Source of the DNA: Elusimicrobiota bacterium
Lineage (GTDB): Bacteria; Elusimicrobiota; UBA8919
Length of the DNA: 23,127 bases
Assembly (NCBI GenBank): GCA_043816185.1
Contig: JBDRIG010000093.1
Location: 1 to 23,127 of the forward strand
Reading direction: 5' to 3'
Positions 3 to 20,685 of this stretch are shown here, piece by piece. The position numbers and the translations under genes are program-made. Numbering within the stretch: position 1 is the first letter of the stretch; each line of letters begins with the position of its first letter. Below the pieces are notes generated by a model. It had not been told where the DNA came from. It was given only the letters and a program-made list of their open reading frames with translations, and did not search any database.

Positions 3-3000
3 TTTACTGCAACTGCAACGCTAACAAATAAATTGGACAATACTGCGATAAGTAATAAAACAGTAAATTTTTCCTTTGGTGCCGAAAGTGAAGAAGCAAC
101 AACCAATTCAATTGGCGTCGCAATAGCAACATTCACCGCACCAATTTCATCAGGAACATATTCTTACAGTGTAAAATTTAACGAGAACGATACCGATGCA
201 ACATATTCTTCAAGTAATGTTATGGGTAGTGTATCTGTCTTGCAACGTCCAACAACAATTCAAATAGACAATATTACAACATTGACGTTAGATGTATTTA
301 CTGCTACTGCTACATTAAGAGATAAATTAAACAATACTGCGATAAGTAATAAAACAGTAAATTTTTACTTTGAAGGAAATGTTTTTAGCACAACGACTAA
401 TTCATTTGGCGTCGCAATATCAACATTCACCGCACCAACATCATCAGGAACGTATGTTTACACCGCGACATTTGATGGTGATGAAACTTATGCGGAAAGT
501 AGTGAAGCAAAATCTGTCTTCGTTCTTCCACGAGAAACCATGCTTGTAGTCTATGATGTTTTAGATGCAGTTACTGAAAAACCGTTTATTGCAAAAAGTA
601 TATTGATGGATACTGACGCTACAGAAAATACGCCTATCGTGGGAAGAACTGTAAAGTTCACGTTTGAAACGGTAAATATAGCATATGGCGTAACGAATGA
701 ATTAGGTATAGCAACCGTTACATTTGTGACACCGCCTACACCCAAAATATACACCTATACTGCTGAATTTTTAGGTGATTCTACCTATCAAGCCAGTAAT
801 GGTGAGGCTACGGTTAGAGCTGGATTATTAACCACATTGACAACCAGCGACGTGAGTACGTTTGCATCGGAACCGTTTAATGTTCAAGCAAAACTTGTCG
901 ATGTGTATGGTGTAAAATTGAACAATAAACCTATAGTTTTCACATTTTTAAATCAAGTACCGTCTGTATTGTTCGTAACCGCAAAAACCAACGATGTTGG
1001 CATCGCAACAGCAACATTTACAGCACCTATTTCCTCTGGAACCCATATTTATACTGCAGAATTTTATGGAGATACTCTCTATGCACCAAGTAATAGTAGC
1101 TCTACAATAAATATTCAACTTAGACCCACCTCCATACTTACATATATTACAAATACTATTGCAAATAGTTCTTTCACGGCTAAAATAGAGTTAAAAGATA
1201 CTCGTTCTAATACTGGAATAGCCAATAAAAACATTAATTTTGTGTTTAATGGTTCAACAAAAACGGTTAAAACAGGTTCTATAACCACAGGCGTAGCAGA
1301 GGCAGAGTTCTTCGCAGTTTCCAATGGTTCATATACCTACACTGCAAATTTTGATGGTGACGATACTTATACAAGCACTGGCTCGACAGGTGATGTAATC
1401 GTTTCTTTACGTTTTACGAGTATGAACGTTTTTGATGTAACTATCCCTGCAAGTAGTTCGTTTACTGCTAAAATAGAACTGAAAGACCCTAGTTCTGATG
1501 AAAATATGCAGGGTAAAATGATAAAATTTGTATTTAATAGTGGACAACCAGAATATGTCGTAACTGGTACCAATAGCATCGCACAAAAAGTTTTTTTAGC
1601 ACCTATGTCATCGGGAACATATACATATACTGCTGAATTTGGTGGGGATGTTGTTTATTCGTCGAGTAGCATTACGGGAATAGTTTCAGTTGGTCAGCGT
1701 TCAACATCTATTTTAATAAGTAATATATCAGCAAGAACCAATACTCCATTTGATATAGAAGCAAAATTGATAGACAACAATACACAAAGCGGTGTTGAAA
1801 ACAAGAACTTGGCTTTTATATTTCAAGAAATTTCTACAACCAGTTTTACTAACAGTATAGGCATTTCTACTGCGACATTTGTTGCTATATCTACGGGGAC
1901 AAATGTTTATTCTGTATCTTTCGTCGGTGATAGTACATATAGCAGTAGTGCTAATAGTGCTAATGTTATCGTTGGCTATAAATCTACTATTTTACTTTCA
2001 GACGAAGCAACTGTTCGGATAAAAGATAATTTTATCGGTAAATCTATTTTGGTTGATTCTACAGGAGCTCCAATATTAAGCAAGGTTATATCGTTTAAAT
2101 TCAACAATGGCGATGTCTACGCAGGAACAACAAACGATTTAGGTATTGCCACCGCAACATTGCCTACCTCTATACTAGAATCCACAGGAACATATAATTA
2201 TTTGTCAAAGTTTGACGGTGATGTTTCTTATGTTGGTGGCGAAGATCTGAAAAAAGTTTATGTGGTTTTGCGTGAAACTAAATTAGAAACTGAGAAAATT
2301 GTTTCTGCACCAAACAAGGCTTTTGGCGTACAGGTAAAATTGTGCGATAATGTTTTTGGTAGCCCAGCATTTAATGATCCAATAGATTCAAAGTCAATAA
2401 CATTTGAATTTTACGACGGTATTTCTACCCACACAAAAGTTGCCACAACTAATTATTTAGGAATAGCAGCCACGTCCTTCACAGCACTAAGTTCTACAGG
2501 AACCTATAACTATGTAGCAAAATTTGAAGGTAATAATATTTATGAAAAAATTGGTAGCAATAATTTGGTTCAGGTTTTGATGGCCACAGGTGAAGGCAAG
2601 GTTGAAACCATTTTGTCTGCCGAAGATATAAGAACCTTTGTTAATGAGGTATTTACATCTACAGCAACATTGGTTTCCTCGGGGATACCAGTTTCATGTA
2701 AAATAATAACATTCGAATTTTACAACGGTGTTAATAATTTAGCAAGGACGACTGCTACAACTAATAATTATGGTGTGGCAACAGCAACGTTTACTGCTCT
2801 TATCTCCGCAGAAACAACATATACAGCGTCTTTTGCTGACGACGAAATTTATTCTTCAAGTAGCGATACGGCTAAAATTTCGATATTAAAACGTCCAACG
2901 ATTTTAATACCGATAGACATAGCAGTATACTCATTAGAAATTTTTACCGCTACATCTACGTTAAAAGATACTCTAACCTCTCAACCGCTTTATAATAAAA

Positions 3001-4553
3001 AAATCACATTTGAATTTTTTGATGGCATATCAACAAATACAAAAACAACTGATACAAGTAATTCGGGCGTAGCAAATGTTGATTTTATATCGCCATCATT
3101 CCCAGGACGCTATAGTTACATAGTAAGATTTAGCGGAAACGACGAAGATAGCGTATATGCGGGGACTATTGCGGAGGGTTCTATTATCGTCAATTCCAAA
3201 GGCGAACAACCATATTTAATATTGAATGATATTGTAGTTGGTCAAGAAAAGGTTTTCTATCCTACCGCAACTTTTACATTTAAGGGACTACCTGTTAAAA
3301 GTAAGTTGGTAACATTTGAATTTGAAAATAAAATTATAAAATCAACTACTAACGTAGATGGTATTGCGACAACATCATTTGTTGCGCCAACTTTTGCGGG
3401 TAATTATAAATGCACGGCAACTTTTGCGGGTGATAAAGATTATATTGGAGTTAAATCTACAGCAACAGTTTCGGTAGTAGAAATTATTGTTGTCGAAGAT
3501 CCATATTATATAAAAATAGCAACTATAACAAAAAATAAAATAACTTTTTCTTGGACGAAAGTAATAAAATATAAAGAGAAAATTAAAAATTATGTTGTTG
3601 AAAAAACAAATAGTCTTGAAGGTAGATGGGAAAAAGTATATTCTGTAGACAAGAACTCTGCTTTAACTTTTACAGATATAAGGATGGAAGGAGAAACAGT
3701 TTATTATCGCGTAAAAACTATCTTTTGTGATGGGCAGGAAAGTAAGGGATTGGCGATAATTGAAGTTCCTAATTATGTAGAAGAAATAGAAAACATTGGC
3801 TATATTTATACCAGTGAAGATAGAAATGCAAAAGTTGAACTGCCAAATAAGATTATGGATGACATACAAGAACAAACTGTTAATCAATTACCAATTAGGT
3901 TAGTAATTTCCAAAGAAGAAAATTCTAATTTTTTATTCGTGTATGATATAAAAATTGTTGATTCGGATGGTAGGGCATTGGATGATAAAATACTTAAAAA
4001 TACACCGAAAGGGATTAGAATTAGTGTTTCTTACAAGAATGTTTTAGGTGTAATTTCTGCCGCTGGTTCTTCCAAAGAGTCTGTTGTCGGTTCTTCCGGA
4101 AAGCCTGCCGCTGGTTTAAATGGGCAACAAGTTGCAATCTACTGGTTCAATAGCGTTGAATGGATAAAATTAGGTGGCACGAACAATATATTCTCAAGCG
4201 AATCTTATATATATTCTCGTACAATAGGAAAATTTGGATTAAAAGCTGGTTCATTAGCGAAAGAGTTCACTTTAACAGAAGTAGTTCCAAAAATATTCAC
4301 ACCAGAAGAATCTTCCGATGTAATAAACAAGGTCAGATTTATATTCGAGAATCCGAAAAATAGTGAAGTTACGATAAAAATATTTGATATAACAGGAGCA
4401 ATAATAAAAAGAAATCTTGAAAGGGAATCAGATAATATTCTTTGCTGGGATGGGCGTGATATAAACAGCGATATTGTTAGAGGTGGAATATATATTTACC
4501 AGATTGAGTCCGAGGAAAAAATTATTACAGGAACAATAGTAGTAGCTAAATAA
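3..4553 (+). CDS. Giant surface/adhesin-like protein, 5'-truncated by window edge: ~12 tandem ~98-aa bacterial Ig-like repeats, FN3-like domain, linker domain, and a C-terminal FlgD-Ig/T9SS type-B-like (gliding motility-associated) sorting domain
   Basis: The frame is open from nt 3 (FTATATLTNKLDN...), so the TTG at 33 is not the true start. Recurring unit: 'F.ATATL.D.....I.NKT..F.F......TTN..G.AT.TF.AP..SGTY.YTA.F.GD..Y..S'. FN3-like 'KITFSWTK...YVVEK....W.....FTD....GETVYYRV'. C-terminus 'VVPKIFTP...RFIFENP...VTIKIFDITG...WDGRD...GGIYIYQI...GTIVVAK*'. Confidence 0.85.
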   Translation, partial: FTATATLTNKLDNTAISNKTVNFSFGAESEEATTNSIGVAIATFTAPISSGTYSYSVKFNENDTDATYSSSNVMGSVSVLQRPTTIQIDNITTLTLDVFTATATLRDKLNNTAISNKTVNFYFEGNVFSTTTNSFGVAISTFTAPTSSGTYVYTATFDGDETYAESSEAKSVFVLPRETMLVVYDVLDAVTEKPFIAKSILMDTDATENTPIVGRTVKFTFETVNIAYGVTNELGIATVTFVTPPTPKIYTYTAEFLGDSTYQASNGEATVRAGLLTTLTTSDVSTFASEPFNVQAKLVDVYGVKLNNKPIVFTFLNQVPSVLFVTAKTNDVGIATATFTAPISSGTHIYTAEFYGDTLYAPSNSSSTINIQLRPTSILTYITNTIANSSFTAKIELKDTRSNTGIANKNINFVFNGSTKTVKTGSITTGVAEAEFFAVSNGSYTYTANFDGDDTYTSTGSTGDVIVSLRFTSMNVFDVTIPASSSFTAKIELKDPSSDENMQGKMIKFVFNSGQPEYVVTGTNSIAQKVFLAPMSSGTYTYTAEFGGDVVYSSSSITGIVSVGQRSTSILISNISARTNTPFDIEAKLIDNNTQSGVENKNLAFIFQEISTTSFTNSIGISTATFVAISTGTNVYSVSFVGDSTYSSSANSANVIVGYKSTILLSDEATVRIKDNFIGKSILVDSTGAPILSKVISFKFNNGDVYAGTTNDLGIATATLPTSILESTGTYNYLSKFDGDVSYVGGEDLKKVYVVLRETKLETEKIVSAPNKAFGVQVKLCDNVFGSPAFNDPIDSKSITFEFYDGISTHTKVATTNYLGIAATSFTALSSTGTYNYVAKFEGNNIYEKIGSNNLVQVLMATGEGKVETILSAEDIRTFVNEVFTSTATLVSSGIPVSCKIITFEFYNGVNNLARTTATTNNYGVATATFTALISAETTYTASFADDEIYSSSSDTAKISILKRPTILIPIDIAVYSLEIFTATSTLKDTLTSQPLYNKKITFEFFDGISTNTKTTDTSNSGVANVDFISPSFPGRYSYIVRFSGNDEDSVYAGTIAEGSIIVNSKGEQPYLILNDIVVGQEKVFYPTATFTFKGLPVKSKLVTFEFENKIIKSTTNVDGIATTSFVAPTFAGNYKCTATFAGDKDYIGVKSTATVSVVEIIVVEDPYYIKIATITKNKITFSWTKVIKYKEKIKNYVVEKTNSLEGRWEKVYSVDKNSALTFTDIRMEGETVYYRVKTIFCDGQESKGLAIIEVPNYVEEIENIGYIYTSEDRNAKVELPNKIMDDIQEQTVNQLPIRLVISKEENSNFLFVYDIKIVDSDGRALDDKILKNTPKGIRISVSYKNVLGVISAAGSSKESVVGSSGKPAAGLNGQQVAIYWFNSVEWIKLGGTNNIFSSESYIYSRTIGKFGLKAGSLAKEFTLTEVVPKIFTPEESSDVINKVRFIFENPKNSEVTIKIFDITGAIIKRNLERESDNILCWDGRDINSDIVRGGIYIYQIESEEKIITGTIVVAK
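38..455 (+). repeat. Near-identical intragenic DNA repeat, 294-bp period (first two Ig-like units)
   Basis: caatactgcgataagtaataaaacagtaaatttt at 38 and 332; ttggcgtcgcaata(g/t)caacattcaccgcaccaa..tcatcaggaac.tat at 112 and 406. Confidence 0.9.
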
Positions 4554-4602
4554 TTCTATACGAGTGTGTAATGCCTTTTTAATTGTCTCGAGATATAAAA
4601 TT

Positions 4603-6270
4603 ATGAAAAAAATTATTTTTATTACGCTTTCACTATCCGCTATCTACTGTCTAATAGCAACCAATTCATACTCTGCTTTTGAAGACATGGATGGTGGGCC
4701 AAGGGTTAAATCTATGGCTGGTGCATTTGTTGCACAAAGCGACGATGTCAATAGTATATTTTATAATCCAGCAGGAATAATAGGAATAAAAAGAAAAGAA
4801 ATATTGTTAACATATGAAAATTTATTAATTGGTCTATCGGACAATAGCAATATCGCTCATAATTTAATAGTATTTGGTTCGCCGATTAAATATAAAACAC
4901 AATATTTGGGCAATGCGTGTATCGGATATAACAATTTGTCGTTAAATAATTTATATAATGAAAATTTAATATTGTTTAGTTGTGCACATAGGTTTAAAAA
5001 TAATCTATCTGCCTTGTCTGCTGGGTTGAATTTTGGTATTATGACGGTAAGTTATAGTGAAGATGAATATACAAAAATCAATCCTGTGTTTGAAAATGTG
5101 TATCGGAAGACAGGATTTAATTTAGATATAGGTGCAATTTACAACTGGAAAAATATAAATTTTGGTATTTCAATAATGAATCTCAATGAGCCAGATTTAG
5201 GATTAAAATACTCTAACAAAGTTAGTAGAAAAATAAATTTTGGAGTGAGCGTTAAGCAAGAAGCATCTATATGGAATGCGGAAATTACGTCGATGAATAA
5301 AGACCTCAAACTTAAAATAGGTACAGAAAGATTGTTGCTGCCAGAATTATTAAAACAAAAAATTCTTTTACGTACTGGAATAAATATTGGTTCTCGTGAA
5401 TATAGAAATATAAGTGTTGGCACTGGATTTAAGGATAAAAATTATTTAATAGATTATTCGTTTATATACCCGCTTGGTGGAATATCAGGTACAATTGGTT
5501 CACATCAATTAGGGCTAACCTATCGATGGGGTGAATCAATCGAAGAAGAAGCAAAAGTGGAATTATCAAAATTACTAGAAGCATCAGGATATATTGAAAA
5601 AGCGAGATTTGCTGAAAAACTCTTGCCATCCGAACCAGTTGAAATTTCCCAACAAGAACGTAAACAGGCACAAGAATTAATAGCGTCTGCAAAAAAAGAA
5701 ATCGATGCTGGGTATTACAAAAATGCACTTGAAAAACTTAAAGCAGCACGGCAAATACTTAAAGATGCTCCTGCAGTTAACGAATTGATTATTAAAATTG
5801 AACCTATAGCACAAATAATTCCTGAAATAATCGCTGTTGATAAAAAAGATTCATTATTGAGAAAAGGTATAGATAAATATTTAGCCAACAATGGAGAGAG
5901 TGCGCTAAATTTCATGATTTATGCTTCACAATTATGGTCTCAAGATGAAAATATTAAGCTATTAAAAGATATTATTATGGAAAAATTCTCTGAAACTAGT
6001 CCTACTGTAGAGAGAGTTCTTCCAGGGATAACCATAGTCGATCAACTACTACAAGATGTGTTAGGCTTGATTCGCTCTAGCAGATTTGTTCAGGCAGTAG
6101 TTGTATGCGAAAAAATCTTAGAGGTAGAACCTGATAATGTAATTGCATTAACAAGGCAAGGTTCTGCATACTGGGCTATGAATAAAAAAGAAATGGCTAA
6201 AAAAATATGGGAAAAAGTATTAAAACTTGATCCCAATAACAAAGAAATTATCGAATTTTTTAAAAAATAA
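4603..6270 (+). CDS. PorP/SprF-like (T9SS-type) outer-membrane beta-barrel with C-terminal TPR domain
   Basis: Likely start is ATG 4603 (MKKIIFITL, signal peptide). N-terminal 'GPRVKSMAGAFVAQSDDVNSIFYNPAG', alternating beta-strand pattern, 'NLNEPDLG', and barrel end 'DYSFIYPLGGISGTIGSHQLGLTYRWG' resembling the PorP/SprF GSHE motif. Helical TPRs follow ('CEKILEVEPDN...AKKIWEKVLKLDPNN'). Confidence 0.7.
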   Translation: MKKIIFITLSLSAIYCLIATNSYSAFEDMDGGPRVKSMAGAFVAQSDDVNSIFYNPAGIIGIKRKEILLTYENLLIGLSDNSNIAHNLIVFGSPIKYKTQYLGNACIGYNNLSLNNLYNENLILFSCAHRFKNNLSALSAGLNFGIMTVSYSEDEYTKINPVFENVYRKTGFNLDIGAIYNWKNINFGISIMNLNEPDLGLKYSNKVSRKINFGVSVKQEASIWNAEITSMNKDLKLKIGTERLLLPELLKQKILLRTGINIGSREYRNISVGTGFKDKNYLIDYSFIYPLGGISGTIGSHQLGLTYRWGESIEEEAKVELSKLLEASGYIEKARFAEKLLPSEPVEISQQERKQAQELIASAKKEIDAGYYKNALEKLKAARQILKDAPAVNELIIKIEPIAQIIPEIIAVDKKDSLLRKGIDKYLANNGESALNFMIYASQLWSQDENIKLLKDIIMEKFSETSPTVERVLPGITIVDQLLQDVLGLIRSSRFVQAVVVCEKILEVEPDNVIALTRQGSAYWAMNKKEMAKKIWEKVLKLDPNNKEIIEFFKK

Positions 6271-6280
6271 TAGTAAAAAA

Positions 6281-6970
6281 ATGGAAAAAACAAATAAAAA
6301 AGTACTTCAATCGCCGCTAATATGGTTAACTGTATATTCTGATTGGATAACCAATATGACGTTGTTTTTCATTCTTTTGTTTTACGTTGCTTTTACTGCT
6401 ATGGACAAAGGATTGAGAGAAGATGAGATGTATAAACTTATGAAAGGAATGGTTTCAACGCTTAAAAAGCAAACTTTCAAAGAAGAATTAAACGAAACAA
6501 TATCAAAAATTACAGAAATTAAAGAGGTATCTGGTATAACTATTGCTGAGAAAGAAATGAAAGTGACATTATCAGAAACAATTCTTTTTGATTCTGGAAA
6601 TGCCGTATTGAAAGAGAATGGTAAAAAAATTTTAATCCAAGTAATGCAGAATTTTAAGGGTTTGCAATATCCAATATTAATTGAAGGACATAGTTGTAAT
6701 CTTCCCTTAAAACAAAAAATATCACCAAAGCTTAAAAAATGGGAGTTGGCTATTCTTCGTTCAGCTGGATCAGGTCCCTATAGGGATAATTGGGAACTTT
6801 CTACCACAAGATCAATCAAAATTGTTGAATTTTTGACGCATGAAAAAATTATTGAACCGAAGAGAATTAGGGTTGTTGCTTGTGGACCCTCAGAACCACT
6901 CTTCCCGAATGATGGCGAGGAAAATCGCAAAAAAAATCGTAGAATAGAAATAAAAATAATAAAAGAATGA
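6281..6970 (+). CDS. MotB-like stator protein 1 (N-terminal TM with conserved Asp, OmpA-like C-terminal domain)
   Basis: Likely start is ATG 6281. TM 'WLTVYSDWITNMTLFFILLFY' matches the MotB W..TY.D..TLL..FF.LL pattern. OmpA-like domain 'ILFDSGNAVLK...IEGHSCN...DNWELSTTR...KNRRIEI'. Confidence 0.85.
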   Translation: MEKTNKKVLQSPLIWLTVYSDWITNMTLFFILLFYVAFTAMDKGLREDEMYKLMKGMVSTLKKQTFKEELNETISKITEIKEVSGITIAEKEMKVTLSETILFDSGNAVLKENGKKILIQVMQNFKGLQYPILIEGHSCNLPLKQKISPKLKKWELAILRSAGSGPYRDNWELSTTRSIKIVEFLTHEKIIEPKRIRVVACGPSEPLFPNDGEENRKKNRRIEIKIIKE

Positions 6971-7557
6971 ACAGAAAAGATGTTAATAATTTAGCAAGCC
7001 AATCTTACCAACTGCCATATATTTCTTTAATGACCGTCCTGTGTATATACTTTATAAGCCTATATGTATATTTCAATAAGTTAGCTGCTAAAAACACAAA
7101 ACAAAAAAGTGAAATTACACAGGAAATATTTGATGAAATTGAAGAAATAAGTAAAGATGTGGCTAATGTAGAGATTACCCAAGATAAAATAAAAATAACA
7201 CTCCCGTCAGATATAGTATTTAATTTAGGCGATAGTAGTATAAAAAAAGAATTAGAACCAGTATTGAAAAAACTGGCTAAGACATTTAAACTCCTACCAG
7301 AAGAATATCTAATAATATTTGAAGGACATACCGATAATTCTCCCGTCTGGTACGGTGGAAACTTTTTTTCCAATTGGGAATTATCTGCATATAGAGCATT
7401 AAGCTTGCAATATTTTTTTGTCGACGAAGGTATTAAGCCAGAAAAAATGCGTATTGTAGGGTATGGCGAATTCAAATTATTGTTTCAAAATGATACCGAA
7501 GAGCATAAAACAGCTAATAGAAGAGTGGAAATTATATTGAAAAAAAGGGGAAAATAA
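6967..7557 (+). CDS. MotB-like protein 2 (TM lacking the conserved Asp, canonical OmpA/MotB peptidoglycan-binding domain)
   Basis: ATGA overlap with the upstream gene. TM 'YQLPYISLMTVLCIYFISLY'. Domain 'FEGHTDNSP...NWELSAYRA...VGYGEF...NRRVEI'. Confidence 0.85.
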   Translation: MNRKDVNNLASQSYQLPYISLMTVLCIYFISLYVYFNKLAAKNTKQKSEITQEIFDEIEEISKDVANVEITQDKIKITLPSDIVFNLGDSSIKKELEPVLKKLAKTFKLLPEEYLIIFEGHTDNSPVWYGGNFFSNWELSAYRALSLQYFFVDEGIKPEKMRIVGYGEFKLLFQNDTEEHKTANRRVEIILKKRGK

Positions 7558-8291
7558 TGATTGCTGATATAATGAGTATAATTTTTTTCTTTTCATCGGT
7601 TTATTTTTCTTTCCCTGACGGCGGAACAATGTTGGTAAAATTTGGTAAAGAAAATAATAATGAGATTGCGGATGTGATTAAAATGGATATGTTAAAAGGA
7701 GAAAAAGTATACAATGTTCTGTCGTTATTAGGATGGAAACCACGTATTGATTGGTTAATTTTAACCCCCTACGATAATAAATTGGATGATAAAATGTATC
7801 ACGTTTTTAACAACTTTAATATTGGGGAAATTTACTTCACTTTTGATTATCGAAAATTTAGTAAACGTTTTGAAATATTGAATGAAGATATTGGTAAAAT
7901 ACTTCTTCAAATATCGTTAAACAATTATCGAGTTTTTAATCTTAAGGAAAAGGAAACAATAGATCTTTTACAATCAATCTCGGGCGTTAAATTCTATAAA
8001 ATATTACCTATTGAAAAATTACAAGGCCTAAAAGAAAGCCAGCATATATGTTTTATCGTAGAGTATAATCAAATAAAGATTTTAATTACAAGCGAGTTAA
8101 CGAAAGAAGAGCAAAATTATATTATTACAAATTTTGCAGATAAAATTAAATCACAAATATTTTACCATCCAGCGAATATCGAACCAGAGTTTTTTTACGC
8201 AGTTAATGCGTCTTGGAAAATTCAATACGGCGAGCATAGAGCATTATTAATTAATGGTGAAAAGATTTTTGAGAGGAGGGATGCTAAATGA
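7557..8291 (+). CDS. Hypothetical protein, degenerate ComEC/Rec2-like metallo-beta-lactamase fold
   Basis: TAATG coupling. 'RIDWLILTPYDNK' and 'FIVEYNQIKILITSEL' resemble ComEC-MBL 'IDLLILTHPHxDH' and 'LxYGxxSFLFTGD' without the His/Asp ligands. Confidence 0.5.
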   Translation: MIADIMSIIFFFSSVYFSFPDGGTMLVKFGKENNNEIADVIKMDMLKGEKVYNVLSLLGWKPRIDWLILTPYDNKLDDKMYHVFNNFNIGEIYFTFDYRKFSKRFEILNEDIGKILLQISLNNYRVFNLKEKETIDLLQSISGVKFYKILPIEKLQGLKESQHICFIVEYNQIKILITSELTKEEQNYIITNFADKIKSQIFYHPANIEPEFFYAVNASWKIQYGEHRALLINGEKIFERRDAK

Positions 8292-8737
8292 AAAACAAAT
8301 CAAAAAGAAGTTTACTGATGTTGATTAAATCTAATATTCCAGGAATTAGAGAATATATTTCTCTATCTTTTATAGTTTTAATCATACTGTTATTTTTAGT
8401 GATATTCAGCAGTTATTTGTTTATTAAAAGTCTTCAAATAGGTCAGTATGCTGACACTATAATTAGTAGAAATGCGTATGTAATAATAATTTTTTGGATA
8501 GTATCCACAATAATTTTGTTTCTAATTTTTGTAAGGAAAATATTGGAAATGAGCGAGCATATTGTAGGCCCTACAAGAAGAATAGAACGAGAATTGGATA
8601 AAATACTTAATGGTGAAAAAAATATTCATATTGTTCTAAGAAGAAGCGATATCTTGTTTGATGTAGTAAAAAAAATCAATCAAGTATTAGATATGTTCGA
8701 AAAAAAATATGATAAAGATAGCAATGAAAATTTATAA
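8288..8737 (+). CDS. Small two-TM membrane protein with a C-terminal HAMP-like domain and no output domain
   Basis: SD gaggagg and ATGA overlap. Two hydrophobic segments, then 'SEHIVGPTRRIERELDKILNGE...LRRSDILFDVVKKINQVL'. Confidence 0.65.
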   Translation: MKNKSKRSLLMLIKSNIPGIREYISLSFIVLIILLFLVIFSSYLFIKSLQIGQYADTIISRNAYVIIIFWIVSTIILFLIFVRKILEMSEHIVGPTRRIERELDKILNGEKNIHIVLRRSDILFDVVKKINQVLDMFEKKYDKDSNENL

Positions 8738-10895
8738 AATCTGTATCTTGTTGTATCGAAAACCGACTTCGATACCGATTAAATCCGCGTCTATGTTTGG
8801 AGCGGAGCGTTTATGCTCATACGTCTTGACTATTTTTACATTGTTATTATTAAATGGATTTGTTACAGCAGTAGACAATAAAATGTTAATTATGCTCTCT
8901 TCGTCTGGATATAATGGTGGTAGCGGATTTATTGACGAAGCAAGAAGTGTTGCTACAGATTCGCAAGATAATATTATTGTTGTTGGTAAAAGCAACGACA
9001 ATCTTTCTATTGTAAAATATAACAAAAGTTTAATGCAGATTAATTCCAAAATAGAAATTACAACAGGAACGGGACGTGGTGTCACGACGGATAAACTTGA
9101 TAACATTATCGTTATAAGTGAAAAAAGTAATATTCAAGGAATTATAAGTTATTACACTATAAAATATGATTCAGGCTTAAACGTTATTTCTTCTACTACC
9201 TACAGTCAGGTTAGTATTAACAATATGCCTTCTGCGGTAGCGATAGACAACGAAGATAATATAATTGTTACGGGTTATAGTTCTGACGGAGCAACGCTGA
9301 GCTGGGTTACAATAAAATACGATAAAGATTTGAGGGAAATTTCCTCAGTGATTTACGACAGTGGTTGGGATGATAGAGCTACAAGTTTAGCAATAGATAG
9401 CCAGAACAATATAATTGTTTCAGGTTATAGTTCTGACGGAGCAACGCTGAATTGGGTTACAAAAAAGTATGACAAAAATCTAAATGAAATATTTTCAGTA
9501 ATTTATGACAGTGGCGGAATTGACATATCTAATGCTGTGGCAATAGATAGCCAGGACAATATAATTGTTTCGGGCTATAGTTTTGACGGAGCAACGCTGA
9601 ATTGGGTTACAAAAAAGTATGATAAAGATTTAAAAGAAATTTCCTCAGTAATTTATGACAGTGGCGGAATTGACATATCTAATGCTGTGGTAATAGATAG
9701 TAGAGATAATATAAGTGTTACAGGATACACAGACAATGAAGGTACATATGATTATCACACAATAAAATATGACAAAGATCTAAATAAAATATCTTCAGGA
9801 ACTTACAATGGGGGTGGAATCGACATATCTAATGCCGCAGCAATAGATAGTCAAGACAATATAATTGTTTCAGGTAAGAGTGCAGATGATTTTTTTACTA
9901 TAAAATATCTTGGGTCACCACAATTAACATCAGCATCAACTGGATATCAAGGGGAAACAATAGGTGTAATAATCGATGGAAGGAATTTCTATAACGGAGC
10001 AGTTGTTAAATTTGGCCATCAAGGAATTATTGTTTCTTCTTCTATGGAAATAATGTCCAACAGAATTTTCGCAAATGTAACTTTTTCTTCTTCCGTGCCA
10101 TTAGGAAAACATAGCATAGATGTTTCAAATATAGACGGTGAAACAACAACAAAATCAAACATTATTGAAGTGATGCGAAGAAAATTAATAAATTCGTTAA
10201 ACGATGAGGAAATCAATTCAGTGTTCGATACAGGAGAGATAGATTTATATATACCTGCTGGAACTTTTCTACAAGATTCCACGATGACAATTTCTTCAGT
10301 CGATAATGCTTTGCTGCAAAATGAAGGAATGTATACTTTTAGTGATGTATGTGTAAGAATTAATATTGAGCCACAAATTGTTTCTCAAAAAGAATTCATT
10401 TTAACCTTAAAATATCGCGATGAATACGTTGCTGGGTTAGACAAAAACCGTCTCGTTATTGTTTGGTATAGTTCTACAACCTTGAGTTGGTATGATATTC
10501 CATCAACTCAAAATATTGCCACTAACGAAGTTAGTTGTAAAACTAAAAACACTAATACCATATTTGCCTTAGCGACACTCCCACCTCTATACACTAATTT
10601 AAGTAATGTAAAGGCCTACCCTAATCCATATAAACCTGGCAGTAATGGGGATTTTGACAATACATCATTGGGTGAAGGGATGGTATTTTCAAATCTTACA
10701 CCAGAGTTTAATATAAAAATTTTTAATATTGCGGGGGAACTTGTTTTTGAATATGAAGGAGAATCAGATGTTTATGGAAATTATTTGTGGAATACAAAAA
10801 ATAATCAAGGTGCAAAATTACACAGTGGATTGTATATATATTTCATAAAAAATGATACACAACAAAAAAAAGGAAAAGTGTCTATAATTAGATGA
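8709..10895 (+). CDS. Secreted beta-propeller (SBBP/delta-60-like repeat) protein with IPT/TIG-like domain and T9SS type-A-like C-terminal sorting domain
   Basis: Start is 8709 or 8724. About 7 copies of 'AVAIDSQDNIIVSGYS......W.T.KYD.DL.EI...YDSGG.D'. IPT-like 'PQLTSASTGYQGETIGVIIDGRNF'. C-terminus 'VKAYPNPYKP...FSNL...IKIFNIAGELV...WNTKN...SGLYIYFI...KGKVSIIR*'. Confidence 0.8.
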   Translation: MIKIAMKIYKICILLYRKPTSIPIKSASMFGAERLCSYVLTIFTLLLLNGFVTAVDNKMLIMLSSSGYNGGSGFIDEARSVATDSQDNIIVVGKSNDNLSIVKYNKSLMQINSKIEITTGTGRGVTTDKLDNIIVISEKSNIQGIISYYTIKYDSGLNVISSTTYSQVSINNMPSAVAIDNEDNIIVTGYSSDGATLSWVTIKYDKDLREISSVIYDSGWDDRATSLAIDSQNNIIVSGYSSDGATLNWVTKKYDKNLNEIFSVIYDSGGIDISNAVAIDSQDNIIVSGYSFDGATLNWVTKKYDKDLKEISSVIYDSGGIDISNAVVIDSRDNISVTGYTDNEGTYDYHTIKYDKDLNKISSGTYNGGGIDISNAAAIDSQDNIIVSGKSADDFFTIKYLGSPQLTSASTGYQGETIGVIIDGRNFYNGAVVKFGHQGIIVSSSMEIMSNRIFANVTFSSSVPLGKHSIDVSNIDGETTTKSNIIEVMRRKLINSLNDEEINSVFDTGEIDLYIPAGTFLQDSTMTISSVDNALLQNEGMYTFSDVCVRINIEPQIVSQKEFILTLKYRDEYVAGLDKNRLVIVWYSSTTLSWYDIPSTQNIATNEVSCKTKNTNTIFALATLPPLYTNLSNVKAYPNPYKPGSNGDFDNTSLGEGMVFSNLTPEFNIKIFNIAGELVFEYEGESDVYGNYLWNTKNNQGAKLHSGLYIYFIKNDTQQKKGKVSIIR
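9240..9880 (+). repeat. 150-bp (50-codon) intragenic tandem repeat encoding propeller blades
   Basis: g(c/t)(g/a)ataga...(g/a)a(c/t)aatataa starts recur at 9240, 9390, 9540, 9690 and 9840; the 9390 and 9540 units are nearly identical. Confidence 0.9.
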
Positions 10896-12004
10896 AAAAT
10901 TATAATTTCCCAGTCGCTATTAGCTTAATCTTTTTTTTAATTACAAGTGCTGTTTTTTCGGCACAGTTTTTAAAAATAGGTATAGGGGCAAGACCCGTCG
11001 GTATGGGAGAAGCATTTACTGGATTATCAGACGATAGTTATGCTATTATATACAATCCCTCAGGATTATCGAAGATTAGTTATTTAGAACAAACTTTTAT
11101 GCACGGTATTTGGTTGGAAAATATAGGTATAAATTGGGCATCTGTCGTTCATCGTGTAACAAAGGTTGATACTATTGGCGTTGGTATAGAATATTTAACC
11201 AGTGGCGACATAGAAACGACTAATAAATATGGTAACAGTTTGGGTTTTTATGATATGTCAGACTTGATGTGTATATTATCTTATGCTAAAAAATTTAGAA
11301 ACATTTCAGTAGGTATAAATATTAAAACTTTTCAAGAAAAAATAGAAAACGAAAAAGCAAATGGAATGGCATTGGATATTGGCATGTTATTTAATTTGCA
11401 TAAATTACAATTAGGTATTGCTGCTCGCAATATTGGCAGTGGAATTAAATTTAGGGCAGTATCTGCACCGTTGCCATTGAATATACGATTAGGTGGGGCA
11501 TATAAAATTTTAGATAAGTTTTTAACTACTACGGATATCAGTTTTTATTCAGACAATAATAAACTTAACCTTCATCTTGGTGGAGAATATACTTATTATA
11601 AAATAAAAAATTTCATTTTTAATACTAGATTGGGATTTAATACAACCACCATTGGTTGTTTAGGTTTTTTATCAGGTTTATCTGCTGGTTTTGGGGTATA
11701 TCACAGTAATACTTGCATTGATTATGTATGGCAACCGTATGACTTTTTTGGTTCAACACATAGAATAAGTTTGACATGGAAATTTGATTCTAAAATAAAG
11801 AAAATAGAAATTGTAGGCAGAAAAACTGAATCTGAAATAAAAAATGTAGAAGATATGTATAAAGATGTAATTCAGTGGTATCAAAAAAAGATTTTAGTAG
11901 AAAATCTTTCAAAAAATGAACAGATAATAATTCTAAAAAGGATTATAGAAAAATTTGAACCCTTAGGCGTGGATGTTTCCGAAGTAAAAAGTGAATTAAA
12001 ATAG
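10892..12004 (+). CDS. PorV-like (UPF0164/FadL superfamily) outer-membrane beta-barrel with short helical C-terminal extension
   Basis: ATGA overlap with the upstream CTD protein. Signal peptide, then 'AQFLKIGIGARPVGMGEAFTGLSDDSYAIIYNPSGL', typical of PorV. Barrel end 'FGSTHRISLTWKF'. Confidence 0.8.
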   Translation: MKNYNFPVAISLIFFLITSAVFSAQFLKIGIGARPVGMGEAFTGLSDDSYAIIYNPSGLSKISYLEQTFMHGIWLENIGINWASVVHRVTKVDTIGVGIEYLTSGDIETTNKYGNSLGFYDMSDLMCILSYAKKFRNISVGINIKTFQEKIENEKANGMALDIGMLFNLHKLQLGIAARNIGSGIKFRAVSAPLPLNIRLGGAYKILDKFLTTTDISFYSDNNKLNLHLGGEYTYYKIKNFIFNTRLGFNTTTIGCLGFLSGLSAGFGVYHSNTCIDYVWQPYDFFGSTHRISLTWKFDSKIKKIEIVGRKTESEIKNVEDMYKDVIQWYQKKILVENLSKNEQIIILKRIIEKFEPLGVDVSEVKSELK

Positions 12005-12129: not shown

Positions 12130-12789
12130 ATGATAAATGGTATGATTTATATTCTTTTTATTTTCATTAATTTGGTATATGCCGAAAAACTTATCGATTC
12201 AGGAATTACAAAATACCTCGAGGGAGATCTTGTGTCAGCGGCTTCAACGTGGAATCAAGTTTTAATTAATGAACCTGATAATTTAGTTCTAAAAGAATTA
12301 GTAGGTAACTGCGATATTACTCTTGGTAAAGAAGCACTATTTAATAAGGATTATCAAACAGCATCTTTACATTTTAAGAATGCATGTAGCGTGTTGTCTG
12401 AAAATAAATGCAATTATTTAAGATCACTTATTTTTCTAACGGAGATAGAAAATAATTTTCCAACGGGGGATGAAATTCTTTATAAAGATATTTTAGAGTT
12501 AGATATAAAAAACGAAAAATGGAAAAATTTTGATCTAATATTTGCCAATAAAAAAATTGTTCAAACGACTACAAAATTCACTCAGCCAATGACACAGGAA
12601 AAATTTATTATACATTATATTTCTTACAACGAAACCTTTGAAACAATTGCGGAAAAATATTATAAAAATCATAATCTTTGGGAAAAGATATGGAAAAACA
12701 ATCCACACATTGAAAATCCACACAGACTTTTTGTGGGAGATAAGATTTTAGTTCCTATAGATCCAAATAATTCAGGAGGTGTAAAATGA
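12130..12789 (+). CDS. Exported TPR + LysM peptidoglycan-binding protein
   Basis: Signal-like N-terminus (…LVYA-E). TPR-like 'GITKYLEGDLVSAASTWNQVLINEPDN'. C-terminal LysM 'HYISYNETFETIAEKYYKNHNLWEKIWKNNPHIENPHRLFVGDKILVP'. Confidence 0.8.
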   Translation: MINGMIYILFIFINLVYAEKLIDSGITKYLEGDLVSAASTWNQVLINEPDNLVLKELVGNCDITLGKEALFNKDYQTASLHFKNACSVLSENKCNYLRSLIFLTEIENNFPTGDEILYKDILELDIKNEKWKNFDLIFANKKIVQTTTKFTQPMTQEKFIIHYISYNETFETIAEKYYKNHNLWEKIWKNNPHIENPHRLFVGDKILVPIDPNNSGGVK

Positions 12790-14165
12790 AAGTTGTTAAA
12801 TTTTTATCTATTCTATCTATTTTTTGTTTTGTTCTTGCTACTAATGTTCGGTCTTTAGATAAGACAGTAGCGGAGGTAGGTATTGAAGAAAGATTAAGGC
12901 AAACACTTACTTCGTACTTAGGGACACAAAATGTTATTGTAATAGTAAAAATCAAATTGTTTGGAAAAGAAGTTGAAGAAAAAACGGTTGGCAAAAAAAT
13001 TAGACGTTGGAACGAATTAGAAGAAATAATTTTACCAGGAGTTCCAGCAGCAACCGATATGATTAAAAAAACACCACTTGAAAAAGAAAAGTATCAAGGA
13101 ATAAAAAGTATATCTGTATCGGTTTTTATTGGGGAAAGTTTTCATGCGAAAACCATAGATGGAGCTAAAAAACTAATTTCAGATATGCTAAATCTAAATT
13201 TTAATACAGGTGATATACTAACTATCGAGAATTATAATGTACCAAAAAATTTCTCGAAATTATTTAAAATAAGTGAAATGATACCAATATTCGTAGCAGT
13301 TGTTTTACCTTTATTTTTTCTTGGAATTTTTTTTATAAGTAGATTTTTTATTAAAATAAACAGATTTTCTAAGGATTTAATCGAGGGTATATCTAAACAA
13401 AAAGTTGCAAGTGGAGTAGAAGCGATTGAAAGTATATCCGCAGGTATTGATAAAGCAGAAAAGTTACCATCACAACTTCGTATTGAAACTGGGGTATCGC
13501 AGGAGATCCAACAATTGTTTAGGTTTGTCAACGAAGATAATATTGAAGACATTAGAAAGATATTAAGTGAAGAATCGTCCGAAGCAATATACAAGATTTT
13601 GCATTATCTACCCACAAAGTTGGCATTTAGTGTTATTCCGGAAGAAAAGCAAAAAGAAGTTATCAAACACTTTATGAAAAAAGAATATACAACGCCCGAA
13701 GAAATAAAACAAATTGAAAATAAAATACGAATAAAACTTCAATATAATATTGGAGGAGCAGCAAAATTAGCTAAATTACTTCAAGGCAGTGGTAAAATTT
13801 CACAAGAAAATATAGTTGACATTTTAAAAAAGGGGGCACCTGAATTTGCATCTGAAGTGGAGGATAAATTATTTAAGTTTGAATATATTCTTGAATATGA
13901 TGAACTAAATTTAAAAAGGATATTTAGATCTGTCGGAGTTGATATTTTTGCACGATGTCTAAAAGATTGTTCTGAGGAAGTTATTAAAGAGTTTCATAAA
14001 AAATTGGGTCAAACAATAACTAATTTGATAAACGCGAAAATAAAAATTTTACCATCATTTGAAAATGAGGAAACAGACGCTAAATCCATATTGATGTTAA
14101 GCATAAAGAATTTAATGAAGAAAGAATTGATTCCAATATCAGAAAAGATTAAAAAAATGTTATAA
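12786..14165 (+). CDS. FliF-like ring-domain / TM / FliG-like (middle + C-terminal) fusion protein
   Basis: SD ggaggt and ATGA overlap. Periplasmic part 'EERLRQTLTSYLGTQNVIVIVKI...LPGVP...IKSISVSVFI...KKLISDMLNLNFNTGDILTIE' resembles the FliF C-terminal ring domain. TM at ~13278-13350. FliG-like 'ILSEESSEAIYKILHYLP', 'IGGAAKLAKLL', 'PEFASEVEDKLFKFEYILEYDELNLKRIFRSV'. Confidence 0.75.
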   Translation: MKVVKFLSILSIFCFVLATNVRSLDKTVAEVGIEERLRQTLTSYLGTQNVIVIVKIKLFGKEVEEKTVGKKIRRWNELEEIILPGVPAATDMIKKTPLEKEKYQGIKSISVSVFIGESFHAKTIDGAKKLISDMLNLNFNTGDILTIENYNVPKNFSKLFKISEMIPIFVAVVLPLFFLGIFFISRFFIKINRFSKDLIEGISKQKVASGVEAIESISAGIDKAEKLPSQLRIETGVSQEIQQLFRFVNEDNIEDIRKILSEESSEAIYKILHYLPTKLAFSVIPEEKQKEVIKHFMKKEYTTPEEIKQIENKIRIKLQYNIGGAAKLAKLLQGSGKISQENIVDILKKGAPEFASEVEDKLFKFEYILEYDELNLKRIFRSVGVDIFARCLKDCSEEVIKEFHKKLGQTITNLINAKIKILPSFENEETDAKSILMLSIKNLMKKELIPISEKIKKML

Positions 14166-14232
14166 CAAGAATGAAAAGATAGGATCAAGAATGAAGAAAT
14201 GGACAGACGATTTTTAGCGTTTTGTTGTTATT

Positions 14233-14349
14233 GCGACTGTGTCACAATGAGCTAAAAAGTTGCATTTTTATAGAAGATAGCAACTGATGGTAAAATATGG
14301 TACTGCAATTCAACACTAGATGGTAAAAGATGGATTGCGACACAGTCTG
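14233..14349. mobile_element. MITE copy 1 (~117 bp, non-autonomous, TIR GAGACTGTGTCRCAAT-like)
   Basis: TIRs gactgtgtcacaat (14235-14248) and attgcgacacagtc (14334-14347). The 113-bp core matches the reverse complement of 22916-23028 with 6 mismatches by manual alignment. Confidence 0.85.
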
Positions 14350-14567
14350 AATGACCAAAAGTAGAGCTATAACACAGTCTGATTGCGAACATTTTTCAGT
14401 AAAAACCATAGGATTCTGCTGATTGGCCTACCTATTCTAATCCTCGTTTTATTATCTCAAGCGGAAAACCAAGCCGTGCATCGCAATTTTCTCTCTCGCC
14501 AGGTGCAAGATGAAACAAAATCTTTTTGCTATCAAAGGTTATCACTACCTCGTTAAGTTCAGTTTGC

Positions 14568-14791
14568 CATTGTGGGCGACCTTGTCCGTCATTGTGGGCG
14601 AAGCGAAGCAATCTCGTCTTGTCCGTCGTGCCCCGCCCCCTGCCTGTCATCTCGACTGAAAGGAGAGATCTCTCTGTTTCGACTAGAAGAGATCCCTCGG
14701 TCGCTACGCTTCCTTGGGATGACAAGCGGGATTGCTACGGCTTCCTTCGGAAACCACGCAATAACCAAAAGTGGAGTTGTGACACAGTCTC
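14568..14791. repeat. Composite palindromic repeat: outer CGTCATTG...GCAATCTC / GGGATTGC...CAATAAC element containing a nested TGTCATC...GATGACA element, ending in a MITE-type TIR
   Basis: Outer arms at 14587-14615 and 14728-14765. Inner 80-bp imperfect palindrome at 14645-14724. TIR ttgtgacacagtctc at 14777-14791. GC-rich relative to the surroundings. Confidence 0.8.
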
Positions 14792-14856
14792 TACGACGAT
14801 TGAATCTTCCGTGTCCATCTGCGTCAACCTGTAACAGAGATTTTCAGCAAAAAAAC

Positions 14857-14884
14857 TTGATTTTTATTTTAAACTTTGTATAAT
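14857..14884 (+). promoter_or_regulatory. Putative sigma70 promoter of the bamA-lpx operon
   Basis: TTGATT (14857-14862), 16-nt spacer, TATAAT (14879-14884); bamA ATG at 14894. Confidence 0.6.
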
Positions 14885-19368: not shown

Positions 19369-20685
19369 ATGAATAAACAAAAAACAATTTCAAAAGAAAT
19401 TTCTTATTCAGGCACAGGGCTTCATACGGGTAACAATGTTTTAATTAAATTAAAACCTGCACAGGAAAATACGGGAATAATTTTTATAAGAACCGATTTA
19501 CCAGATAACCCTAAAATAAAAGCAGATATTTCAAACGTTCTTATAACCGTGCGAGGTACGACCATTGGGCTTGATGAAAAAATAGCCGTTCATACAGTAG
19601 AACATCTTCTGGCAACATTATTTGTTTTTGGTATTGACAATTTGATAATTGAAATGGATTCCAACGAACCGCCAATTGCCGACGGTAGTGCCTTACCTTT
19701 TATTGAACTTATAAAAAATGCTGGAATAACCGAACTTTTAGCGGAAAAAAAATATTTCAATCTTTCGAGCCCAGTTGTTTATAGAAATGACGATATTCTT
19801 ATAACCGCAACTCCTTGTGACAAATTTCATATTTCTTGTACGATTATTTATAACCACCCGCTATTAAAAACTCAGTTTCTATCTCTTGATATAACCCAAG
19901 AAATTTTTGAAAAGGAAATTGCACCAGCTAGAACTTTCTGCTTTGATTACGAAATCGAGGCACTTAAAAATAAAGGACTTGCAAAAGGTGGTTCGTTAGA
20001 AAATGCCATAGTAATAGGTGCAAAAAAGATTTTTAGTGAATTGCGTTTTGACGATGAATTTGTACGACACAAAATTCTTGATTTAATTGGCGATATTTCA
20101 CTTCTGGGAAATTTTTCTGAATTAGAAATTTCTGCGATAAAATGTGGCCATAAGAATAATATAGAATTTGCGAAAAAAATTGCTTTAAGTCAAAAAAATT
20201 CAACTACGCCTTCTTCAGGAAAACCATTGTGGCAAATACCCGACGGTAAAATGATTGACATTAATGAAATAAAAGCAACTATTCCGCACAGATATCCGTT
20301 TCTTTTTATTGATAAGGTAATTTTGGTTGAAGAAGTAAAAAGAGCAGTCGGAATAAAAAATATATCTATTGGAGAACAATTTTTTCAAGGGCATTTTCCT
20401 GAACAGCCGATAATGCCAGGAGTGTTGATTGTGGAGGCGTTGGCACAGACCGCCTGTGTTTTATTTTTATCAAAGCCAGAATTGAAAAGTAAAAAACTCG
20501 CATACTTTATGTCAATAAATAATGTAAAATTTCGCAAACCGGTTTTTCCTGGCGATGCACTTTATCTTGATGTTGAAGTGTTAAAAGCAAGACAGACGAC
20601 TGGAATAATACGAGGATGTGCTTTTGTGAACGGAAAACCTGTAACGGAAGCCGAGTTTACATTTATGTTAGTCGATAAACCCTAA
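19369..20685 (+). CDS. lpxC-fabZ: Bifunctional LpxC deacetylase / FabZ 3-hydroxyacyl-ACP dehydratase fusion
   Basis: LpxC 'GTGLHTG', 'TVEHLLA', 'EPPIADGSA', 'IAPARTF', 'EFVRHKILDLIGD'. FabZ 'IPHRYPFLFIDKV', 'FFQGHFPEQPIMPGVLIVEALAQ', 'FRKPVFPGD'. Confidence 0.97.
   Translation: MNKQKTISKEISYSGTGLHTGNNVLIKLKPAQENTGIIFIRTDLPDNPKIKADISNVLITVRGTTIGLDEKIAVHTVEHLLATLFVFGIDNLIIEMDSNEPPIADGSALPFIELIKNAGITELLAEKKYFNLSSPVVYRNDDILITATPCDKFHISCTIIYNHPLLKTQFLSLDITQEIFEKEIAPARTFCFDYEIEALKNKGLAKGGSLENAIVIGAKKIFSELRFDDEFVRHKILDLIGDISLLGNFSELEISAIKCGHKNNIEFAKKIALSQKNSTTPSSGKPLWQIPDGKMIDINEIKATIPHRYPFLFIDKVILVEEVKRAVGIKNISIGEQFFQGHFPEQPIMPGVLIVEALAQTACVLFLSKPELKSKKLAYFMSINNVKFRKPVFPGDALYLDVEVLKARQTTGIIRGCAFVNGKPVTEAEFTFMLVDKP

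Follow-up and report, generated by a model that had tools for sequence, protein, structure and literature searches.

Two unlike MotB-type proteins, only one with the membrane aspartate, as candidate partners in a stator-type complex of a non-flagellar module in Elusimicrobiota

Two tandem MotB-type genes, B1 and B2, lie in the 23,127 nucleotide stretch of Elusimicrobiota DNA that we have analyzed (assembly GCA_043816185.1, contig JBDRIG010000093.1, positions 1 to 23,127 of the forward strand; called the window in the following). B1 has an aspartate (Asp) in its membrane helix, and B2 has a serine at the same place. Together with a MotA that is encoded on another contig of the same genome, the two proteins very probably belong to one stator-type complex of a non-flagellar module. 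We also lean, if only slightly, towards a heterodimer of B1 and B2 with a single working carboxylate. The motA-motB1-motB2 operon is widespread in Elusimicrobiota and, judged by the loci read here, the pairing recurs across this mostly flagellum-less phylum. In the mechanism that we propose, B1 and B2 would be two unlike B subunits of one MotA-type ion-driven motor of 5:2 composition. One B1 and one B2 helix would stand side by side within the MotA pentamer, with the OmpA-like domains paired in the periplasm. D21 of B1 would be the sole carboxylate for ion uptake, and B2 would contribute a passive helix (Ser here; Asn, Gly, Ala and sometimes Asp in relatives) together with a canonical wall-binding domain. 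We infer the heterodimer, its one-Asp cycle and the job of the machine from features that were observed directly, namely the residues, their conservation, the gene order and the co-diversification of the two genes.

The equivalence of the key residues was tested by phmmer alignments of B1 and B2 against solved chains. D21 of B1 pairs with the Asp of the Clostridium sporogenes MotB chain 6YSF, and S20 of B2 pairs with the Asp of the Bacillus subtilis MotB chain 6YSL. A preliminary description of this DNA had read the membrane Asp in B1, a Ser in its place in B2, a GHSC motif in the OmpA-like domain of B1 and a canonical GHTD...NWELS..R motif in that of B2, and all four readings are borne out (Table 1). 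It had also given B1 an insertion of about 20 residues. The insertion is present, and it comprises 19 residues because the 6YSF chain continues ungapped opposite the unpaired B1 residues 148-166; the 22-residue string that had been named for it merely overlaps this segment. Both proteins match the Pfam family OmpA (PF00691) well above the cut-off of 27.2, B1 with 51.8 bits and B2 with 50.4 bits. The match of B1 to MotB_plug (PF13677) remains under the cut-off of 24 (20.8 bits, or 21.8 bits in the genome search), and the Pfam scan of the window proteins gave no MotB_plug match for B2. An AlphaFold2 model of B1, with a predicted local distance difference test score (pLDDT) of 89 and a predicted template-modelling score of 0.72, shows two helices, of which the long first one (11-43) takes in the membrane span and the second comprises residues 47-78, then the OmpA-like domain and an extra helix in the insertion. 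The top Foldseek match of this model is PomB-C (3WPW, E 1.1e-12, TM-score 0.84 by target); MotS-C and a Desulfovibrio MotB-like protein are near as well, and the type VI secretion wall anchors 4B62 and 6AEO are among the matches.

With regard to wall binding, we take the Asp of the GHTD motif to correspond to Asp271 of Acinetobacter baumannii OmpA. Asp271 and Arg286 of that protein bind diaminopimelate (PMC5974059; this and all papers below are cited from the parts of their text that were available). By sequence, the diaminopimelate-binding pair is D123 and R143 in B2, and in B1 C139 stands in the place of the Asp while R177 is kept.

The asymmetry of the membrane residue is conserved in the relatives. 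A search of 301 Elusimicrobiota genomes with B2 showed tandem MotB-like genes to be very common. Thirty short loci were inspected, followed by 40 regions no longer than 20 kb; the pair sample holds 40 pairs from 35 genomes, the window included. The tandem search gave a match in 274 of the 301 genomes, a tally that covers any OmpA- or MotB-like match and not pairs as such. For the column counts 39 first-position and 39 second-position proteins were aligned, one of each having been dropped where the open reading frame (ORF) call had cut the start. Every first-position protein has the membrane Asp (39/39). In the second position the column holds D in 17 proteins, N in 17, S in 2, G in 2 and A in 1, and the Asp is thus missing in 22 of 39. 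The Asp of the GHTD motif is present in 37 of the 39 first-position proteins (the window has C and one other protein G) and in all 39 second-position proteins (D123), and the Arg of the motif is kept in both positions without exception (39/39 each, R143 in B2).

The two genes are old and have diversified together. A single branch of a joint tree of 88 MotB-like proteins has all 40 first-position proteins together on one side; its support in the Shimodaira-Hasegawa-like approximate likelihood ratio test (SH-aLRT) is 52, and rises to 90 when a single-gene MotB is counted with them. The same eight subclades can be recognized in either half of the tree, with support of 98-100. Hence the gene was duplicated before the subfamilies arose, and both copies have persisted. 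On a tree from which the Asp column was left out, the 39 second-position proteins require at least five changes between Asp and non-Asp states, three of which are forced by strongly supported branches.

The mirrored clades also bear on the simplest explanation of the missing Asp, that B2 is a decaying duplicate of B1 without a function of its own. It is in keeping with decay that B2 lacks a residue without which flagellar MotB does not work, and the small genome (1.44 Mb) with its scattered operon might favor it too. However, the frame of B2 is intact, a pair of genes maintained since before the subfamilies split is not a decaying one, and 12 columns are invariant among the 39 second-position proteins, including D123, R143 and N184-R185-R186. 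Nor do the B2 orthologs usually retain the Asp, as the preliminary description had thought they might if this copy alone were decaying: the residue is missing in 22/39 sampled proteins and in 13/17 of the closest subclade, and the OmpA motif is intact. We therefore regard decay as close to refuted. A weak hint in the same direction comes from an RNA library, in which a single 267-base contig (depth 2.9) is identical to positions 7250-7515 within B2, with none on B1. Since the matching run (5% of sampled words present) is stored as contigs and DNA carry-over is possible, this contig demonstrates neither transcription nor an operon.

A closer view is given by the subclade of the window, which comprises 16 loci from species-representative genomes with 42-47% identity to B2, all of them Elusimicrobia-labelled metagenome-assembled genomes; with the window the subclade counts 17 loci, and three of the 16 duplicate loci in the 40-pair sample. 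All B1 proteins of the subclade have the membrane Asp (17/17) and the insertion (17/17), the latter being found in no other sampled first-position protein. In the B2 proteins the corresponding position is Gly in 11, Asp in 4, Ala in 1 and Ser in 1. An alignment of the closest B2 sequences (8 rows) shows no variation at Y14, P17, Y18, M22, T23, C26 and F29 of the helix, while the Asp position is S, A, G or D; no other part of B2 is as conserved within the subclade as this membrane helix. Of the 17 B1 proteins, 15 retain the Asp of the GHTD motif; it is missing in the window (GHSC) and in one protein with SHAG, which has a degraded C-terminal motif as well. In the same scan of species-representative genomes, matches 17-80 (Spirochaetota, Alphaproteobacteria, Planctomycetota and others) have an OmpA domain at 25-40% identity.

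These counts divide the central claim of the preliminary description, which had seen a complementary loss of key residues in the two genes and had proposed an alignment of orthologous pairs for a split into Asp-bearing proteins with GHxC and Asp-less proteins with GHTD. The Asp split recurs, and this asymmetry is conserved and old (Asp in 39/39 first-position against 17/39 second-position proteins). The GHxC split does not recur, and loss of the wall Asp in B1 is confined to 2/39 proteins of the sample and 2/17 of the subclade. Going by this distribution, the GHSC change is a recent local event, and the complementary loss is true of this genome but not of the system. It looks as if both subunits were generally able to bind the wall, so that any division of labour would be no more than a late and local development.

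In 9 of the 11 subclade loci that have a Gly in B2, B1 carries an extra Glu five residues after the Asp (Met in the window). This Glu may be a second carboxylate supplied by B1.

No motA lies within the window. The genome (1.44 Mb in 112 contigs, 94% complete) contains four genes of the MotA/ExbB family, two of them ExbB-like and two of them MotA, one each on contigs C2 and C24. The C2 gene belongs to a module with a single canonical MotB beside a FliF-FliG fusion. The C24 gene is an orphan, flanked by the gene of a 1768-residue protein and that of a large secreted protein. Against the MotA encoded upstream of the nearest orthologous pair (L011), the C24 MotA scores 297 bits and the C2 MotA 94 bits. 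The best solved relatives of the C24 MotA are flagellar-type MotA and PomA (Paenibacillus MotA1 9LU9, E 5.5e-40). On these alignment scores the C24 MotA is the cognate of the B1-B2 pair and the ortholog of the MotA found upstream of the pair in relatives.

Gene order in the relatives ties the pair to MotA and to a FliG-like protein. In 38 of the 40 pairs the gene that immediately precedes the first B gene is motA; the window departs from this order, as does one locus in which a PorP-like gene intervenes. Of the 36 wider loci, 30 have a FliG-like gene immediately before motA. Among the other six, the FliG-like gene stands beside the pair on the other strand in one and was not detected in three, and two loci are cut by a contig end. 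A relative of the PorP-TPR protein of the window is present in 27 of the 36, and a small PorP-like gene follows right after the second B gene in many loci, ten of which were noted as examples. In the closest locus (L040) the order is giant immunoglobulin-like (Ig) protein, small ORF, PorP-TPR, FliG-like, MotA, B1, B2, tailed protein, PorV-like and LysM. Set against this order, the genome of the window thus holds the same set, rearranged. By this comparison the FliG-like gene is moved behind LysM, motA is moved to another contig, and two extra genes are gained after B2. A 4-base ATGA overlap joins the stop codon of B1 to the start codon of B2, and the same overlap occurs in 7 of the 40 sampled pairs.

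Some variation was seen among these loci. Five genomes have two FliG-like/MotA/MotB1/MotB2 clusters each, which belong to different subclades, and often the second B gene of one cluster has the Asp and that of the other does not. Three loci of the window subclade are arranged as PorV-like, LysM, MotA, B1, B2 without a FliG-like gene directly upstream, and they are three of the four subclade loci in which B2 keeps the Asp. A genome of the same genus has a MotA-B1-B2 set that falls in a different subclade and whose second B gene retains the Asp. This set is uninformative on when the operon of the window was split. An apparent natural B1-B2 fusion, one ORF over both genes in one genome, was rejected because a run of N lies between the two genes.

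We folded B1 and B2 as two chains with our own alignments, in three runs and with three controls. The median score was 0.81 (0.81, 0.80, 0.81), compared with 0.00 for the best control, and it passes a mark that was reached by 116 of 157 solved complexes and by 2 of 215 mismatched pairs, counts that apply only roughly given the use of own alignments. The runs share at least 92% of the contacts, with a partner pLDDT of at least 80. In the membrane helices the predicted contacts lie at positions -1, +2, +6, +9 and +13 relative to the Asp, and this is the register given for E. coli MotB, with residues A31, M34, M38, F41 and W45 (bioRxiv 10.1101/2023.03.05.530362). D21 and S20 are predicted to face outward, toward the expected MotA side, and the OmpA domains to pair via a helix-and-strand surface. 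Residues 153-154, 157 and 161 of the B1 insertion contact B2 in the model. A heterodimer is compatible with this two-chain prediction. Because B1 has lost its wall Asp in this genome (GHSC) and the predicted fold has the extra helix of the subclade leaning on B2, it may be mainly B2 that provides the anchoring here; such a shift is a tentative proposal, and we hold it somewhat doubtful.

A different place for B2 would be outside the MotA pore. It could serve as an inner-membrane wall anchor of the OmpA_C type that holds the PorP/PorV-like parts or the FliF/FliG-like ring, with a B1 homodimer as the stator. The lack of a MotB_plug match in B2, the small PorP-like gene right after the second B gene and the type VI secretion wall anchors among the Foldseek matches of B1 would all be in keeping with this. 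However, the helix of B2 keeps the MotB pattern round the lost Asp, aligns to the solved MotB helix and is conserved above the rest of the protein, and the fold pairs both helices in the MotB register. Moreover, Asp and Asp-less second-position proteins are interleaved on the tree, which argues for one functional family. We therefore consider it quite improbable that B2 is an anchor of this kind.

Several points weigh against the heterodimer with one carboxylate and have to be set beside the evidence for it. The motA gene is unlinked from the pair in this genome, the window being the sole pair of the 40 with motA outside the locus. The pairs were taken from matches ranked by likeness to the Asp-less B2 of the window, and the share of Asp-less proteins may be inflated as a result. 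Moreover, the Asp persists in 17 of the 39 second-position proteins. Two carboxylates are thus compatible with a running system, and in those cases the residues do not demand a mixed pair. The fold may pass only by likeness to the MotB dimer, because MotB homodimers have been solved and B1 and B2 are paralogs, and it shows no preference of a heterodimer over homodimers. The FliG-like protein of the subclade, aligned to Thermotoga maritima FliG, does not have the charged (acidic or Arg) residues of the torque helix, and the rotor-stator contact may accordingly be non-canonical. Finally, there is a precedent for the gene order. The Aquifex aeolicus operon has one motA and, after it, two motB genes; their products differ in the periplasmic region and share 97% identity in the membrane region, and each of them, as a chimera, functions with MotA without the other (PMC4525482). 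One motA with two motB genes does therefore not by itself mean a heterodimer.

The Aquifex example raises the alternative that B1 and B2 form two exchangeable stators on one MotA, a B1 homodimer as the motor and a B2 homodimer, unable to conduct ions if it has no Asp, as a form that is parked, brakes or purely anchors. The Asp kept in 17/39 second-position proteins would suit this, and the only solved state of MotB is a homodimer. However, an ion-blind homodimer would need upkeep throughout the phylum, with the wall motif intact in 39/39 proteins and the MotB-type helix conserved. The second gene has lost the Asp at least five times, the first gene in 0/39 sampled proteins, and this fits a dispensability made by the partner better than a regulator that evolved five times. 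The near identity of the Aquifex membrane regions, in a true flagellar motor, also differs from the two old and distinct clades found here, of which the second lacks the Asp in 22/39. In sum, two alternative stators appear unlikely to us, and we continue to favor the heterodimer.

Compared with the flagellar stator (MotA5B2 or PomA5B2; 6YKM, 6YSL, 6YSF, 8BRI, 9LU9) the likeness is clear in the flagellar-type MotA on C24, in the membrane Asp, the linker and the OmpA-like domain of B1, which is closest to PomB-C and MotS-C, and in the predicted helix register. Unlike that stator, the system has two unlike B genes, one of them Asp-less, a motA apart from them, a membrane-anchored FliF/FliG-like partner and PorP/PorV-like neighbours. 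FlhA (FHIPEP) was not found in the 94%-complete genome, where only FliG-domain fusions turned up in a search that did not extend to other flagellar families. A flagellar stator proper, the frame of the preliminary description, is thus not what we find: motA is missing from the window, FlhA was not found in the genome, and the partners are a FliF/FliG-like fusion and PorP/PorV-like barrels.

Two unlike B-type genes with one A-type gene are also known from the AglR-AglQ-AglS gliding motor of Myxococcus xanthus, likewise a non-flagellar machine of surface motility. An AglQ-AglS heterodimer within an AglR pentamer has been predicted by AlphaFold (PMC11761067), and according to a 2022 review it was not known whether AglQ and AglS form a heterodimer or homodimers (PMC9389320). 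AglQ and AglS are TolR-like and do not have an OmpA domain, and AglR is TolQ-like and not a flagellar-type MotA. In Elusimicrobiota the retention of two unlike B genes with one A gene, as in AglRQS-like motors, extends over 40 pairs from 35 genomes and two mirrored clades. Similarly, TPH-vWA proteins occur as 'heterologous pairs' beside TolQ-like pentamers and have been proposed as the central dimer of a 5:2 motor; both partners have the Asp, and they differ from B1 and B2 in their vWA instead of OmpA domains and in the TolQ-like A subunit (PMC12204202).

In the larger machine, the phylum-wide module of a FliF/FliG-like membrane protein, MotA, MotB1 and MotB2 would act in a non-flagellar setting; its genes adjoin those of PorP/SprF-like and PorV-like barrels and of giant surface proteins that carry type IX-like tails. 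The PorP/SprF barrel, the type-B tailed protein, the PorV-like barrel, the giant Ig protein and a SprA_N match, with no GldM found, make a part in exporting or moving surface proteins the most attractive guess. The SprA_N match (30.1 bits, cut-off 27) lies on contig C112:38919-39293, minus strand, in a 1746-residue frame, and a second PorP/SprF gene is found on contig C50:36865-37656, minus strand. GldM_1st (PF12081) gave no match in the 94%-complete genome, in a search that left GldL, GldK and GldN aside. Judged by its gene content, the genome holds a partial type IX-like set without the usual motor. The likeness to type IX secretion and GldLM-driven gliding thus lies in the barrels and the tailed and giant surface proteins, and the difference in the missing GldM_1st match and in motor genes of the MotA/MotB/FliG-like kind. 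PorE, the wall anchor of that system, combines TPR and a propeller; B1 and B2 have neither.

Among open-access full texts and bioRxiv we found no description of a natural MotB pair with one Asp or of this Elusimicrobiota module, although the supplement alignments of PMC12505986 and PMC12204202 could hold such pairs. The available main text of a 2025 MotAB phylogeny contains neither 'Elusimicrob' nor 'two MotB' (PMC12505986). In rotary models of MotAB, ExbBD and TolQR the two central Asp residues alternate, with one ion per 36-degree step (PMC9389320). A pair in which one central helix has lost the Asp repeatedly and the other never is seemingly a natural version of a test that is hard to do cleanly in E. 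coli. If it is a true heterodimer, it would let one ask if a motor can run on one carboxylate, what this does to its stepping, and whether the subunits can share out ion handling and wall anchoring between them. It would also add a defined stator type to flagellum-free FliG-MotA modules, here beside type IX-like surface-protein genes. At its boldest the idea is a one-legged 5:2 motor in which the single carboxylate drives the MotA ring in 72-degree strides or with a limp. Together with the FliF/FliG-like ring it would be a stand-in for GldLM, derived from the flagellar motor, that powers the export or movement at the surface of giant type-B-tailed adhesins on PorP/SprF-like barrels in Elusimicrobiota without flagella and GldM. 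This picture is speculative, and we would not expect it to hold in full.

Table 1. Positions of the features discussed; coordinates refer to the window unless a contig is named.
Feature	Position	Strand	Remarks
Orphan flagellar-type motA	G000 contig C24:10304-11068 (locus L004:1381-2145)	minus	no B gene alongside
motB1-type gene B1	6281..6970	+	ATG 6281, stop 6968-6970, 229 aa; N-terminal membrane helix, long linker helix, OmpA-like domain with GHSC
B1 D21 codon, membrane Asp	6341..6343	+	GAT; phmmer-aligned to the Asp of solved MotB 6YSF
B1 G136-H137-S138-C139 replacing GHTD	6686..6697	+	direct sequence reading
B1 insertion, residues 148-166, in the OmpA-like domain	6722..6778	+	19 residues; gap versus 6YSF; predicted short helix 153-162
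motB2-type gene B2	6967..7557	+	ATG 6967, 196 aa; MotB-like membrane helix without Asp, complete OmpA-like domain
B2 S20 codon at the MotB Asp position	7024..7026	+	TCT; phmmer-aligned to the Asp of solved MotB 6YSL
B2 G120-H121-T122-D123, canonical OmpA motif	7324..7335	+	followed by NWELS..R with R143
Giant Ig-repeat surface protein	3..4553	+	5' end open at contig start; Pfam Big_3_5 150 bits; orthologs head the cluster in L040 and L041
PorP/SprF-like outer-membrane barrel with C-terminal TPR	4564..6270	+	directly upstream of B1; Pfam PF11751 43.5 bits (cut-off 22.3), TPR families
Secreted protein with CHU_C (type IX type-B) C-terminal domain	8709..10895	+	Pfam PF13585 30.1 bits (cut-off 27)
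UPF0164/PorV-like outer-membrane barrel	10892..12004	+	Pfam PF03687 31.4 bits (cut-off 21.4)
FliF/FliG-like fusion	12786..14165	+	459 aa; Pfam FliG_C 41 bits, FliG_M 25.3 bits

B1, B2 and all other window genes discussed are on the plus strand. Downstream of B2 follow two genes without Pfam matches, the CHU_C protein, the PorV-like barrel, a LysM protein, the FliF/FliG-like fusion, BamA, OmpH and lpx genes. The C-terminal tail of the giant Ig-repeat protein matches Por_Secre_tail weakly (18.3 bits, under the cut-off of 27). An ortholog of the CHU_C protein is present in 11 of the 16 subclade loci and follows B2 in the closest locus, L040. The UPF0164/PorV-like barrel, which matches the PorV family weakly (19.2 bits, under the cut-off of 27), adjoins the gene with this C-terminal domain in L040 and L041 too. 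The FliF/FliG-like fusion consists, in this order, of a signal or membrane helix, a periplasmic part, a second membrane helix and the FliG middle and C-terminal domains (helices read by eye), and it matches T. maritima FliG 1LKV with E 8.5e-16.

The two genes right after B2, 7557-8291 (244 aa) and 8288-8737 (149 aa), are absent at that place in L040, and the 149-aa product has two hydrophobic helices by eye. They were considered as a hidden MotA of the window and rejected: they have no Pfam match and no four-helix MotA look by eye, and the MotA is on C24. No tRNA and no Rfam family was found in the window, including the 14.1-14.9 kb spacer. This spacer of 710 bases (14166-14875) is G+C-richer and has near-repeated words, and at about 14586-14620 many short RNA-library contigs match it with 2-3 differences; it looks like a small repeat element shared among organisms. 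Further downstream, within a BamA-OmpH-LpxD-LpxC/FabZ-LpxA-LpxI block, positions 19369-20685 form a single gene in which LpxC is fused to a FabA/FabZ-like dehydratase.

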